Source: Escherichia coli
GTDB lineage: Bacteria > Pseudomonadota > Gammaproteobacteria > Enterobacterales > Enterobacteriaceae
NCBI RefSeq assembly: GCF_024223415.1
Contig: NZ_CP100500.1
Length of the DNA: 64,000 nt
Strand: one strand, 5' to 3'
Below, in pieces: positions 33,166 through 42,522 of the stretch (positions within the stretch are counted from its first letter, which is position 1; every line of letters starts with the position of its first letter). The position numbers and the translations under genes are program-made. Below the pieces are notes generated by a model. It made no database searches. It worked only from the letters and a program-made list of their open reading frames with translations, and was not told where the DNA came from.

Positions 33166-36490
<3,325 letters not shown>

Positions 36491-36704
36491 CGCGCACCTC
36501 GTGGCTGATTATGGACGGCGTTATTGGCAAAGTGGAACAAGACTCACTCCCGGGTCAGCAAACTCGAAAAATTGACGCTGCCATTATTTGTGCTTTCGTT
36601 TTTTTCTATCCGCCAATAAACCCGTTTTTTTGTTGCTATTTAGCGCCTTTGTCTTATTGACTTACTGGTAGGCTTTGCTACCAGAAATTATCCAGGAGAC
36701 GAAA
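36491..36704. promoter_or_regulatory. Divergent fliF / fliE class 2 (FlhDC-dependent) promoter region
   Basis: Intergenic region between divergently oriented fliF and fliE; assignment from conserved flagellar regulon architecture, sites not individually mapped. Confidence 0.4.
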
Positions 36705-37019
36705 ATGTCAGCGATACAGGGGATTGAAGGGGTTATCAGCCAGTTACAGGCTACGGCGATGAGTGCGCGTGCACAGGATTCACTGCCGCAACCGACCATT
36801 AGTTTTGCCGGGCAGCTGCACGCCGCGCTCGATCGCATTAGCGATACACAAACAGCTGCCCGCACGCAGGCAGAAAAATTCACCCTCGGTGAACCCGGCG
36901 TGGCGTTAAACGATGTGATGACCGATATGCAAAAAGCCTCAGTTTCTATGCAAATGGGGATTCAGGTGCGTAATAAGCTGGTGGCCGCGTATCAGGAAGT
37001 GATGTCCATGCAGGTGTAG
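36705..37019 (+). CDS. fliE: Flagellar hook-basal body protein FliE (104 aa)
   Basis: [104 protein letters not shown]. Confidence 0.95.
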
Positions 37020-37352
37020 GTTTTGTAACCTGTTGTTAATTACTTCCAATCTCACCGCTTGGGGCATGGATGGGGCAAACTCACTCAATTTCTGGTTTAA
37101 AATGGATACCTGATCCTGAAAGTTTTCTGCCATCCACGATCCGTAAACGCGATAACATGTTTTGTCTTCGCTTTGCTCATAGGAAGAGTGAACTCTTTTG
37201 TTAGCCTGGGGTTCCTTCTGATCATTATTGTTCCTGCCTTTATCTCTTGCCACGCCAGAGCCCCCTGGATACACATACACCAGGATGAAAACGGTGAGTT
37301 GTGTTCAAACTGTAGTACAATTCTCTCCAGTATGAACAGGAAAGAATATGCT

Positions 37353-37685
37353 ATGAACCCTTATATTTATCTTGGTGGCGCAATACTTGCAGAGGTCATT
37401 GGTACAACCTTAATGAAGTTTTCAGAGGGGTTTACACGGTTATGGCCCTCTGTTGGCACAATTATTTGCTATTGTGCATCATTTTGGTTATTAGCTCAGA
37501 CACTGGCTTATATACCTACAGGGATTGCTTATGCTATCTGGTCAGGAGTCGGTATCGTTCTGATTAGTTTGCTTTCCTGGGGATTTTTTGGCCAACGACT
37601 GGACTTGCCAGCCATCATAGGCATGATGTTGATTTGTGCCGGTGTGTTAGTCATTAACTTGTTGTCACGAAGCGCACCGCATTAA
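37353..37685 (+). CDS. emrE: SMR-family multidrug efflux transporter EmrE (110 aa)
   Basis: MNPYIYLGGAILAEVIGTTLMKFSEGFTRLWPSVGTIICYCASFWLLAQTLAYIPTGIAYAIWSGVGIVLISLLSWGFFGQRLDLPAIIGMMLICAGVLVINLLSRSAPH; conserved Glu14. Confidence 0.9.
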   Translation: MNPYIYLGGAILAEVIGTTLMKFSEGFTRLWPSVGTIICYCASFWLLAQTLAYIPTGIAYAIWSGVGIVLISLLSWGFFGQRLDLPAIIGMMLICAGVLVINLLSRSAPH

Positions 37686-37853
37686 AAAATAATCATCCTT
37701 GAGATAACAGGAATCTGATTTGTGCATATTATGGCTAATGTTCGGGGCAACTTTATAATTATGATTGCATTTGCGCGATCATTGCGCCTTTTTGCATAAT
37801 GAGATCAATGCACATCAAATAAAATAACGATAGGTCACAACAAAGAGGTTTTT

Positions 37854-38405
37854 ATGAAAAAACTTATCGTTTCAAGTGTATTGGCATTCATAACATTTTC
37901 TGCGCAGGCCGCAGCATTTCAGGTCACTAGTAATGAAATAAAAACAGGAGAGCAACTTACAACGTCTCATGTATTTTCTGGATTTGGGTGTGAGGGGGGT
38001 AATACATCGCCCTCATTAACCTGGTCTGGTGCTCCAGAAGGCACCAAAAGCTTTGCCGTAACTGTGTATGATCCAGATGCGCCTACAGGCAGCGGATGGT
38101 GGCACTGGACTGTTGCTAATATTCCAGCAACGGTAACATATTTGCCCGCTGATGCAGGAAGACGTGATGGTACAAAACTTCCGACTGGTGCTGTCCAAGG
38201 CCGAAATGATTTTGGTTATGCGGGATTTGGTGGAGCATGTCCTCCCAAAGGAGATAAACCCCATCATTACCAGTTTAAAATATGGGCTCTAAAAACTGAT
38301 AAGATTCCTGTGGATTCTAATTCCAGCGGAGCGTTAGTTGGTTATATGCTTAATGCCAATAAAATTGCAACCGCTGAGATAATACCCGTTTATGAGGTAA
38401 AGTAG
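37854..38405 (+). CDS. ybcL: Secreted PEBP-family (Raf kinase inhibitor-like) protein YbcL (183 aa)
   Basis: Signal peptide MKKLIVSSVLAFITFSAQAAAF, PEBP motifs (YDPDAP, HHYQFKIWAL). Confidence 0.85.
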   Translation: MKKLIVSSVLAFITFSAQAAAFQVTSNEIKTGEQLTTSHVFSGFGCEGGNTSPSLTWSGAPEGTKSFAVTVYDPDAPTGSGWWHWTVANIPATVTYLPADAGRRDGTKLPTGAVQGRNDFGYAGFGGACPPKGDKPHHYQFKIWALKTDKIPVDSNSSGALVGYMLNANKIATAEIIPVYEVK

Positions 38406-38414
38406 GATAAGAGT

Positions 38415-39212
38415 ATGCTGGCAAAAGATAGGACTAACCTAAAGATTGAAGAAATACGGATGCATAAACATCATGAGATTCACAGGGTTAAGCCTCTTAT
38501 GCCAGCTTTATGTCGTATCCGTCAGGGAAAAAAAATTATCAATTGGGAGACGCATAGTCTAACTGTTGATAATAATCAGATAATATTATTTCCCTGTGGA
38601 TATGAATTTTATATTGCGAATTACCCAGAAGCAGGTCTTTATCTTGCAGAAATGCTTTATTATCCCATTGATCTAATTGAAAAGTTCCAAAATCTTTATG
38701 CGATAACCGATCAAATTCGTAACACGACAGGTTTCTGCTTACCTCAGAATCCCGAGTTAATATATTGTTGGGAGCAACTAAAAACATCTATTTCCCGAGG
38801 CTTCTCAACGCAAATTCAGGAACACTTAGCAATGGGCGTTCTACTTTCATTAGGAGCACATCATGTTAATTGTTTACTTTTATCAGATAGTAAACAATCA
38901 TTAATAAGTCGTTGTTATAACCTAATGCTATCCGAACCTGGAACAAAATGGACAGCAAACAAGGTAGCGAGATATCTCTACATTTCTGTTTCCACATTGC
39001 ATCGCCGTCTGGCAAGCGAGGGAGTAAGTTTTCAAAGTATATTGGACGACGTGAGGTTAAATAATGCGTTGTCTGCTATACAAACGACAGTAAAACCCAT
39101 CAGCGAGATTGCCAGGGAAAATGGTTACAAGTGTCCTTCTCGTTTTACTGAAAGGTTCCATAATCGTTTTAAGATAACACCAAGAGAGCTAAGAAAAGCG
39201 TCCAGAGAGTAA
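38415..39212 (+). CDS. ybcM: AraC/XylS-family transcriptional regulator YbcM (265 aa)
   Basis: C-terminal AraC HTH ([47 protein letters not shown]...[20 protein letters not shown]). Confidence 0.85.
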
Positions 39213-39503
39213 AAGTATTTTATGAAGGAGCAACAGCATAGATTTTTATTTTGGAAAATAAATACGGCATACTCAACCTATTGGAGCCTGAACAATCCGG
39301 TGACTTCTGCGCTAATCGGGGACGTTTATAAGCACATATAATTGATACTATCTTCCTCCATCACAATTTCAGAAATGCACGTGTGATTTTTTTGCATCCG
39401 GCGTTTGGACTATGTGGAGTTCAAGAGTGGGAAAGTTACAAGAGGTTGAGGGGATAATTAAAGGGATGCTTATGACATTAGATATCCGGATAGGTACGGA
39501 TAT

Positions 39504-39543
39504 CGTTGTTATTAAATCTAGTTCGTTGTTATTAAATCTAGTT
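39504..39543. repeat. Perfect 2-copy tandem direct repeat of a 20-bp unit (CGTTGTTATTAAATCTAGTT)
   Basis: Two adjacent identical 20-mers inside AT-rich non-coding DNA. Confidence 0.9.
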
Positions 39544-40175
39544 TATACGTTAAGATGCAGCTACAGCAGAAATTGCCACTGTTAATTTTTTCATCGTGAG
39601 CCTTTTATTTGAACTATTATTTAAAAATGATGTCACTGCACTACAAATATTCATCCAATCAATGAGATTATTTCAAGATGTAAGTTTTAGTTTCTCATTT
39701 AAATTGTGAAGTAGATCCCTATCTTTATCTGAACTGTTTCTATTGCACACAATGCATGACTATTTTGTGAACGAATATAAATTTGGTAGTTAAATTATAT
39801 TAAAGGTTGTTATTTATGATTGACTCATAATTTATTTATTTAATTTAAATAGCCTAGAAATAACCATGGAAATTATTTGCATGATGTTTGTTTAGATTTA
39901 TTAATGTAATTGAGGTGGTTTTATTTAATACGCAATATAGCGCCGCTTGATATTAGTTCTATTTTTTTTGCGTAAGATAGATGAGACAAACTGAGACGCA
40001 TAATGGTTTGCAAGGCTCTAATACTTTGATGTTGAGGATGTGATGGGGCATGTACGGGGCATAGTACAATGATGTCCATGCTGGTGTAGATAATCTCCAG
40101 GCTTATCCGGTGCGCCGTAAAACCCCGTCCTTCAGGGCAGGGATATAAGGCGTGGTTTTCCACCTGACCAGGTGT

Positions 40176-40602: not shown

Positions 40603-41811
40603 GTGAAACGACTACAAGCATTTAAATTCCAGTTAAGACCCGGTGGTCAACAGGAGCGTGAAATGAGGCGCTTCGCAGGCGCATGTCGTTTCGTTTTCAA
40701 TCGTGCTCTGGCACGTCAGAATGAGAATCATGAGGTCGGTAATAAATACATCCCTTACGGGAAAATGGCTTCCTGGCTGGTTGAGTGGAAAAATGCCACT
40801 GAAACGCAATGGCTTAAAGATGCCCCGTCACAGCCATTGCAACAGTCACTGAAAGACCTTGAGCGGGCTTACAAAAACTTCTTCCAGAATCGGGCTGCTT
40901 TTCCCCGATTCAAAAAGCGGGGACAGAATGATGTATTCCGCTACCCGCAGGGCGTTAAGCTCGATCAGGAAAACAGCCGTATTTTTCTGCCGAAACTGGG
41001 CTGGATGCGCTACCGGAACAGCCGTCAGGTCACGGGTGTTGTGAAAAATGTCACTGTCAGCCAGTCCTGCGGTAAGTGGTACATCAGTATTCAGACAGAA
41101 AGTGAAGTATCAACTCCGGTTCACCCTTCAGCATCAATGGTCGGGCTGGATGCTGGCGTGGCTAAACTCGCCACGCTGTCAGATGGCACAGTCTTTGAGC
41201 CTGTAAACAGTTTTCAGAAAAACCAGAAGAAGCTGGCGAGACTTCAGCGACAGTTAAGCCGCAAGGTCAAATTCAGCAACAACTGGCAGAAGCAGAAACG
41301 CAAAATACAGCGACTGCATTCCTGTATCGCAAATATCCGCAGGGACTACCTTCACAAAGTCACAACGACCGTCAGCAAAAACCACGCAATGATAGTCATT
41401 GAGGATTTGAAGGTCAGCAACATGTCAAAGTCAGCAGCGGGTACGGTCAGCCAGCCGGGGCGCAATGTCCGGGCAAAATCAGGTTTAAACCGTTCGATAC
41501 TGGATCAGGGCTGGTATGAAATGCGCCGCCAGCTTGAGTACAAGCAGCTCTGGCGTGGCGGTCAGGTGCTTGCTGTTCCGCCAGCGTACACAAGCCAGCG
41601 TTGCGCGTGCTGTGGTCATACAGAGAAAGAAAACCGCCTGTCACAAAGTAAATTCAGATGCCAGGTATGTGGATATACAGCGAACGCCGATGTAAATGGC
41701 GCTCGTAACATTTTAGCGGCGGGGCACGCCGTTCTTGCCTGTGGAGAGATGGTGCAGTCAGGCCGCCCGTTGAAGCAGGAACCCACCGAAATGATTCAGG
41801 CGACAGCCTGA
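40603..41811 (+). CDS. tnpB: TnpB (IS605 OrfB family RNA-guided endonuclease), apparently intact, 402 aa
   Basis: RuvC-I ([12 protein letters not shown]), RuvC-II ([11 protein letters not shown]), zinc finger CACCGH...CQVCG, RuvC-III ([10 protein letters not shown]). Confidence 0.85.
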
Positions 41812-41850: not shown

Positions 41851-42522
41851 TCAACAAACAGGTTGAATTAACTCCGCGCCCTGGTTTTTGACATTACCTA
41901 CCGCGCGCGATACCGGGTGCCAGGTGAACTGGTTTGCTGGCACACAGCCGTTGGTAGCAATTTCTGATGCTTCTTTACCGCCAATCTCTTGCCGCATCCA
42001 TTCCTGTGCAGCTTCTGGCGACAGAACCAGCGGGCGGCGGTCATGAATATCTACCAGACCCTGGTCTGCTGCTGCAGTGACAATTAAAAATCCTTCGGCT
42101 TCGTCACCGCGCTCAAACGGTGTGCTACCTATCGCGGCCATAAAAACAGGTTGTCCATCAGCGCGATAGATAAAATAAGGCTGTTTTTTGTCGCCTTCTT
42201 TTTTCCACTCAAACCAGCCATCGGCAAAACAGATTGCCCGACCATGTTGCCAGAGCGGTTTAAACATACGACTGGTGGCCGCAGTTTCTACGCGGGCGTT
42301 AATCAGCGGCGGTTTATCCCACCATCCGGGAGCATATCCCCAGAAAACCGGATCCAGATGAAGGTGTTCATCACGTTCACTGAGCAGAAGAACTTTGGTT
42401 CCCGGCGCGACGTTGTATCTGCCAATGGGTTCGGGATCGTAGGGAATATCGCGTTCAATATCTTCCGCGAGAAGCGCAAGGTAATCTTCACGCGTTTGGG
42501 ATTGGGCAAAGCGTCCACACAT
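41851..42522 (-). CDS. yedK: SRAP-family abasic-site processing protein YedK (223 aa)
   Basis: MCGRFAQSQTREDYLALLAEDIERDIPYDPEPIGRYNVAPGTKV..., N-terminal Cys2 nucleophile. Confidence 0.9.
   Translation of the reverse strand: MCGRFAQSQTREDYLALLAEDIERDIPYDPEPIGRYNVAPGTKVLLLSERDEHLHLDPVFWGYAPGWWDKPPLINARVETAATSRMFKPLWQHGRAICFADGWFEWKKEGDKKQPYFIYRADGQPVFMAAIGSTPFERGDEAEGFLIVTAAADQGLVDIHDRRPLVLSPEAAQEWMRQEIGGKEASEIATNGCVPANQFTWHPVSRAVGNVKNQGAELIQPVC

Follow-up and report, generated by a model that had tools for sequence, protein, structure and literature searches.

What is the DNA between fliE and emrE in this Escherichia coli genome, and where does the foreign DNA that carries emrE begin? The window analyzed here, a 64,000-nt stretch of contig NZ_CP100500.1 (assembly GCF_024223415.1), contains a 333-nt spacer (37020-37352) between the fliE stop codon TAG at 37017-37019 and the emrE start at 37353, and GC content, about 55% in fliF, falls to 28-44% within the island. 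A preliminary description had found no recognizable integrase or att sequence at this left edge, and had suggested that a minus-strand reading frame in the spacer could be a relic of the gene that originally bordered fliE. Our comparisons point to a different origin. With a probability of roughly 0.88, the spacer is the left end of a decayed lambda-like (lambdoid) prophage that was integrated into the 3' end of fliE by tyrosine-integrase site-specific recombination, and it consists of an attachment site, two broken pieces of the integrase, and the emrE leader. The homologies, the junctions, the direct repeat, and the finding of an intact prophage at this site in another strain are counted here as direct observations. 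The features of the locus are the following.

34832-36490, minus strand: fliF, E. coli chromosome context
36706-37019, plus strand: fliE (ORF list; RefSeq annotation of identical loci), its last 20 nt being the attachment-site core
36939-37280, minus strand: 113-amino-acid chimeric ORF with a GTG start (ORF list), not a gene
37000-37019: attL core TGATGTCCATGCAGGTGTAG, made up of the final 6 codons of fliE and its stop; the 20-nt direct repeat has its left copy here
37020-37035: phage-side arm GTTTTGTAACCTGTTG, from the core to the integrase stop (alignments to phage attP, ATCC 11775, the UTAK-1 attL, and Escherichia sp. E1V33)
37036-37155, minus strand: integrase remnant A, codons 393-431 of a 434-amino-acid lambdoid/P22-type tyrosine integrase (tblastn, nucleotide alignment)
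37151-37155: deletion junction J2, TTATC microhomology (minus strand), with the breakpoint relative to K-12-type genomes at 37156/37157
37151-37260, minus strand: integrase remnant B, codons 239-277, one frame off remnant A (local and database tblastn)
37261-37276: junction J3, where the integrase fragment meets the ren'/emrE cassette; homology to integrases stops at about 37260-37268, and that to DLP12 starts at 37277
37277-37352, plus strand: the final few bases of a ren-like gene, followed by the emrE leader with the ribosome-binding region (DLP12 homology)
37353-37685, plus strand: emrE, SMR efflux transporter, first cargo gene of the relic (NCBIfam NF042984 and annotation)
37854-38405: ybcL, downstream of emrE
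38415-39212: ybcM, downstream of ybcL
40070-40089: attR core TGATGTCCATGCTGGTGTAG, 19/20 positions identical to attL, followed at 40090-40107 by backbone shared with island-free-type strains
40603-41811: tnpB, within an IS200/IS605 element
41851-42522, minus strand: yedK, right of the IS200/IS605 element

The part of the spacer nearest to fliE, remnant A, encodes a peptide (YRVYGSWMAENFQDQVSILNQKLSEFAPSMPQAV…) that matches the Int protein of Escherichia phage IdasGreatGrand with 87% identity (tblastn E = 2e-15) in a database of 50,697 phage records (2.3 Gb) that was searched with both remnants. Its best matches are the integrases of IdasGreatGrand and Enterobacter phage CobraSix (434 and 431 amino acids), whose genes follow an excisionase gene, and in both phages the match is to the extreme C-terminus of the protein. 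Integrases of the IdasGreatGrand type combine an Arm-DNA-bind_2 domain (PF12167, residues 7-70) with a Phage_integrase domain (PF00589). At the nucleotide level, identity to IdasGreatGrand int is 93% for remnant A and 97.5% for its copy in ATCC 11775, while the phage int 3' end and attP region taken together are 89-93% identical to the window. The segment RVYGSW is presumed, from alignment to the Tn1549 Int, to hold the catalytic tyrosine, and PGAP labels this stretch "integrase, incomplete" in other genomes.

Remnant B, which reads …LAWQEI--KAGTIMIRRNPRLTKEFTLPMSKAKTKHVI on the minus strand, has the same two phage integrases as its best matches (tblastn E = 2e-7 in the phage database), so that the similarity of both pieces to bona fide integrases is significant. 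Its blastn identity is 75-79%, about 79% to IdasGreatGrand int, and it may extend to about 37268 past a 9-bp deletion. An apparent tblastn extension to codons 210-238 was rejected, the DNA from 37277 being DLP12-like emrE leader. The searches turned up no full-length integrase with a closer match to remnant B: among complete E. coli genomes the top hit is 75% identical, and a scan of representative genomes returned only Escherichia sp. E1V33, with an IdasGreatGrand-like remnant. In the complete E. coli genomes remnant B is present as a single copy in 2622 of 5426.

Between the two remnants, 344 nt of integrase (codons 278-392) are missing at J2, which accounts for their different reading frames. 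The intact-gene sequences that flank this junction are …CGTGTTATC|AAC… and …ATGGTTTATC|GCG…, with GTTATC/TTTATC microhomology, and the missing 344 nt are included in the fliE-adjacent remnant of Escherichia sp. E1V33, which covers codons about 260-434. At J3, a large deletion has taken everything from the 5' portion of int to nearly the end of ren; ATCC 11775 shares both J2 and J3. A smaller loss lies at 37035/37036, where an 11-bp deletion (ACTATGCTTGT) removed the integrase stop codon in the window; these 11 bp are kept in the phage, in ATCC 11775, in the UTAK-1 attL, and in Escherichia sp. E1V33. With only codons 239-277 and 393-431 remaining, in different frames, there is no complete catalytic domain (Arg-Lys-His-Arg-His/Trp-Tyr) in one frame; the second Arg and the His residues (…SRHTY…GHSD…) were lost with codons 278-392, and the Tyr-bearing RVYGSW segment alone survives. 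The N-terminal arm-type DNA-binding domain (PF12167) is absent, and the window holds nothing upstream of about codon 235. Judged from these sequences, the integrase pieces are a non-functional pseudogene.

The attachment site lies inside fliE itself. The repeat TGATGTCCATGC(A/T)GGTGTAG at 37000-37019 recurs at 40070-40089, where 0.02 matches would be expected by chance, and a short direct repeat with one copy beside int thus flanks the element and bounds a mini-prophage of about 3.1 kb. Window positions 37000-37035 are identical at 36/36 nt to the DNA just downstream of int in IdasGreatGrand, whose homology to fliE ends exactly at 36999/37000, and CobraSix carries the equivalent sequence downstream of int for an Enterobacter-type fliE end. 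Searches for attR with this 36-nt block, or with its right-hand 26 nt, found nothing, because the true core appears to be the left 20 nt only, those that end fliE. This core is identical to the attP of phages whose integrase matches and is occupied by intact prophages elsewhere, as would be expected of a genuine attachment site. Immediately to the right of the attR core stands ATAATCTCCAGGCTTATC…, the yedK-side backbone common to K-12 and the minimal strains, and ATCC 11775 has the same arrangement.

These repeats redraw the left edge of the island. Two integrase fragments and a direct repeat are present where the preliminary description had seen neither integrase nor att sequence, and its proposed relic of a chromosomal neighbor of fliE is instead the integrase of a prophage inserted at the fliE 3' end. 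Its placement of the island boundary in the spacer holds for the breakpoint relative to other E. coli, which alignment with the minimal strain PCP06101, K-12, and O157 puts at 37156/37157, but this is an internal deletion junction only. Biologically, the foreign DNA begins within the last 20 nt of fliE and not in the intergenic region, and the DNA from 37020 to 40069, the whole spacer included, appears from its homologies to be phage-derived.

Within the core, the fliE serine codon at 37006-37008 is TCC in the window, ATCC 11775, and the IdasGreatGrand attP, and AGC in K-12, O157, E1V33, and the UTAK-1 attR. The crossover cannot be placed within the 20 nt from this polymorphism, as both placements fit. 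TCC and AGC are synonymous codons two steps apart, and their occurrence inside the att core means that phage traffic may rewrite the last codons of fliE. At the other end of the element, an IS200/IS605-family element (40108 to about 41854) with a degraded tnpA and an intact 402-amino-acid TnpB (40603-41811) is cleanly inserted between the end of the island and the stop codon of yedK, 18 nt past the right-hand edge of attR; ATCC 11775 is without this element and its backbone is uninterrupted there.

The remainder of the island identifies the kind of prophage from which it came. The segment 37277-37687, from the last bases of renD through emrE, is 92% identical to prophage DLP12 (NC_000913, 568,239-568,649 region), 37699-39419 is 89% identical to DLP12 ybcL-ybcM-ylcH', 39429-39523 matches the 3' end of DLP12 quuD, and 39554-39931 is 82% identical to the nmpC/ompD 5' region of lambdoid phages (434, ev243). 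The emrE product scores 240 bits against NCBIfam NF042984 (cut-off 226). The remaining order, int'-emrE-ybcL-ybcM-ylcH'-quuD'-nmpC upstream region-attR, is colinear with DLP12, and int is divergent from the rightward genes, as in the lambdoid order int … ren-emrE-ybcL-ybcM-ylcH … Q-nmpC; order and orientations are those of a lambdoid map (attL-int … ren-emrE-ybcLM … Q-nmpC … attR) with large deletions. No immunity, replication, lysis, or virion genes are present between 37020 and 40089, and the fliE element is a relic that cannot be an active phage.

DLP12 in K-12 (intD … renD-emrE-ybcK-ybcL-ybcM-ylcH … quuD-nmpC) thus shares its cargo genes with the fliE element (82-92% nucleotide identity), and seen from the integrase end their order and orientation agree. 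DLP12 differs in its location at argU and in its integrase, IntD, whereas the fliE element has a different integrase, and in its size of about 21 kb with ybcK, nin-region, and lysis genes retained, all of which are lost from the approximately 3.1 kb at fliE. The ylcJ-ybcK (recombinase) segment of DLP12 (L008, 5650-7739) is missing between emrE and ybcL in the fliE island (37687-37699). The window keeps the quuD 3' fragment and the nmpC/ompD upstream region (39429-39931) and has lost the porin gene; in the island of the B2 type strain ATCC 11775 (L013, 8841-10208) an nmpC-like porin, annotated ompC, is kept, and quuD' is also present.

The 76 nt upstream of emrE probably carry its translation signals and possibly also its promoter, a role suggested by a TACAAT −10-like hexamer read from the sequence at 37316-37321. 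A consensus scan of the spacer returned no plus-strand promoter, no fliE terminator, and no full sigma-70 match, and the number of promoter-like sites was not above that in shuffled sequence. An Rfam scan of 36600-37900 at E ≤ 1 found no RNA family match, and the predicted folding of the fliE 3' end with the core was unremarkable (z = −0.87).

Remnant A is the positional and sequence ortholog of intG (b1936) of E. coli K-12, which bears out the earlier suggestion of an intG-like gene remnant on the minus strand. Identity to K-12 is 96.3% over the first 137 nt after fliE and 95.8% over the 120 nt of remnant A. MG1655 annotation describes intG as a pseudogene of "cryptic prophage PR-G" and draws it across the fliE 3' end. 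In both genomes the piece has the same position, converges on fliE, and abuts the fliE stop codon, and in both the same 11 bp with the stop codon are lost, so that the annotated K-12 pseudogene overlaps fliE antisense. The two loci part company further upstream. K-12 retains integrase codons 383-434 and nothing beyond them before the yedN/yedL block, unlike the window, where codons 393-431 are followed by codons 239-277 and then by emrE-ybcL-ybcM. Neither form can be derived from the other, and each would have decayed independently from a longer gene. O157:H7 has a second stump copy (L004, 6913-7123), 91.7% identical to window 37036-37155, which belongs to a duplicated stump-espR module (espR4, espR3) and is without an att core.

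The intact relatives of this integrase are found in phages and prophages. The integrases of IdasGreatGrand and CobraSix and those of the prophages in E. coli UTAK-1 and FLI21 are the best matches of both remnants; the prophages sit exactly at the fliE site, and the DNA that follows int in the phages repeats the 3' end of fliE, as at attL in the window. These integrases are full length (that of FLI21 is frameshifted), in contrast to the window, which has about 78 of 434 codons in two frames and is without the arm-binding domain and the catalytic Arg/His residues. A full-length integrase gene of the IdasGreatGrand type occurs in 8 of the 5426 complete E. coli genomes and is adjacent to fliE in both of those examined. 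In UTAK-1, a P22-like prophage of 38.7 kb separates fliE from the old stump and is bounded by the core at both ends (L011, 604-639 and 39329-39364); in FLI21, xis and int stand against fliE. The attachment core and phage arm thus appear to be still in use by present-day phages with a matching integrase.

Across the same 5426 genomes, the first 137 nt after fliE, which hold the C-terminal piece, are present in 5331, and the whole 333-nt spacer with its emrE-type junction in about 2620. Among the types of fliE-yedK gap, the emrE type makes up about 48% and the minimal type about 15% (about 800 genomes); the rest of E. coli presumably have the yedN/espR type. A chimeric query for an unoccupied attB, with fliE joined directly to the yedK flank, found none among the 5426 genomes, and the ancestral empty site is therefore deduced from the repeat alone. 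No genome was found with an intact prophage that combines the fliE-site integrase with emrE-ybcL-ybcM. In the near-identical strain AR96.3A (L003, 4744-5686), IS1A replaces fliF through most of fliQ and leaves fliE isolated, and this strain is presumably non-flagellated.

The minus-strand ORF at 36939-37280 is real, as the preliminary description of a non-coding fliE-emrE junction had reported; its translation contains the quoted peptide ...YGSWMAENFQDQVSILNQKLSEFAPSMPQAVRLEVINNRLQN... and its antisense run into fliE is 81 nt long. It passes from out-of-frame remnant B through in-frame remnant A to antisense fliE read-through, which exists because the 11-bp deletion took the integrase stop codon, and its in-frame part matches phage integrases above chance (E = 2e-15 in the 2.3-Gb phage database). 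In ATCC 11775, which has the same junction, the ORF is not conserved: there is an upstream stop (…ANE*) and the frame terminates at the native integrase stop (…GSDIIKQA*). We conclude that the ORF is not a gene. A real small protein gene, or a functional antisense regulator of fliE, could in principle have evolved from the integrase debris; the frame is open for 113 codons, and K-12 annotation likewise draws intG over the fliE 3' end. A weak promoter-like sequence, GTGGCA-18-AATAAT, lies inside remnant B on the minus strand (37253→37224), aimed in the correct direction toward fliE antisense. A genomic SELEX study, which treats renD-emrE as one unit, also lists an RpoD site in the K-12 yedM-intG spacer (PMC3946193). 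Such a gene is nevertheless very improbable for an ORF that strings together three unrelated readings, owes its existence solely to the 11-bp deletion, is interrupted in ATCC 11775, and has an entirely different upstream half in K-12-type genomes. The promoter-like count noted above is not in excess of shuffled sequence, no RNA family is matched, and Pfam and NCBIfam scans of the translated fragments gave nothing significant (best E = 0.05-0.08, far short of the curated cut-offs), the fragments being too short and degraded. That same protein-family result is what neutral intergenic DNA with an accidental likeness to integrases would give, the outcome that the preliminary description had named as the one that would count against a gene relic. 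This reading can be set aside with near certainty, and is already refuted by tblastn matches (E = 2e-15 and 2e-7) in which both pieces hit the same integrases, correctly ordered and oriented, by 89-93% nucleotide identity to a phage int 3' end and attP, and by intact prophages at the site.

The history of a decayed lambdoid prophage would then be as follows. The phage attP carries a copy of the last 20 nt of fliE, and integration would therefore rebuild an intact fliE and leave the 20-nt direct repeat at 37000-37019 (attL) and 40070-40089 (attR). The integrase gene would have adjoined attL, converging on fliE, and would have been destroyed stepwise: by the 11-bp deletion that took its stop codon, by the 344-nt deletion at the TTATC microhomology that may have fused codons ≤277 to codons ≥393 out of frame, and by a large deletion from about codon 235 of int through ren that would have set the emrE leader against the integrase stump. 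We infer both the order of these deletions and the derivation of the two integrase pieces and the cargo from a single prophage.

The divergence of the two remnants bears on this last point. Relative to IdasGreatGrand int, identity is 93% for remnant A (97.5% for the ATCC 11775 copy) and about 79% for remnant B, a discordance that speaks against a single integrase gene, so that the two pieces may not stem from one gene. Moreover, remnant A of the window is nearer to K-12 (95.8%) than to ATCC 11775 (92.5%), though the latter shares the emrE junction. Remnant A (intG) could accordingly derive from one prophage visit, and remnant B with emrE-ybcL-ybcM from a second prophage in tandem, J2 being a deletion or a homologous or illegitimate recombination between two different integrase genes. 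The presence of remnant A in nearly all E. coli, including those without emrE, and the tandem of a new prophage and an old remnant in UTAK-1 would agree with such an origin. Against it, the 344-nt length and the codon order (…277 | 393…) fit exactly a simple internal deletion in one gene, and the integrase 3' ends are better conserved between the two phages compared (86.6% versus 79.3%), so that part of the discordance is expected. On balance we consider two elements rather unlikely, and this alternative would change how the DNA arose but not what it is. At J2, material between two tandem prophages could have been deleted, or recombination with later phages may have exchanged remnant A for another copy; a mosaic integrase would fit the divergence pattern, as would a remnant A renewed by later phage visits. 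Such renewal would take the form of a tandem integration like that in UTAK-1, after which one integrase 3' end recombines with the other.

Under the prophage reading, the "intergenic" DNA is entirely prophage-derived. Apart from cleaner annotation, little follows from this: the spacer is a prophage scar of an ordinary kind, the core of which is already annotated as intG in E. coli K-12. The second integrase fragment and the att repeats are unmarked in the RefSeq annotation of the genomes examined, and the literature searched (intG/fliE, ybcL/emrE/fliE, PR-G, CobraSix, IdasGreatGrand) contained no description of the site, the second fragment, or the repeats. The scar explains an ORF that is open to mis-calling as a gene overlapping fliE, and the 20-nt repeats give exact boundaries to a small island, present in about half of E. 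coli genomes, that carries emrE, ybcL, and ybcM.

The fliE 3' end is, in addition, an integration site still used by present-day P22-like or lambdoid phages. A more speculative proposal, which we hold only tentatively and think somewhat doubtful, is that the fliE 3' att site and the resident int stump act as a self-renewing landing pad. New phages with a matching integrase would insert at the core. The int 3' end that they bring would then recombine, through RecA, with the resident stump of about 120-160 nt, deleting the phage and leaving a "refreshed" stump. If true, this would account for a remnant A that is far closer to modern phages than remnant B, for remnant A alleles common to otherwise different island types, and for the hypervariable fliE-yedK gap in E. 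coli, and a founding DLP12-like prophage would survive only in the emrE-ybcL-ybcM cargo that about half of the species carries.
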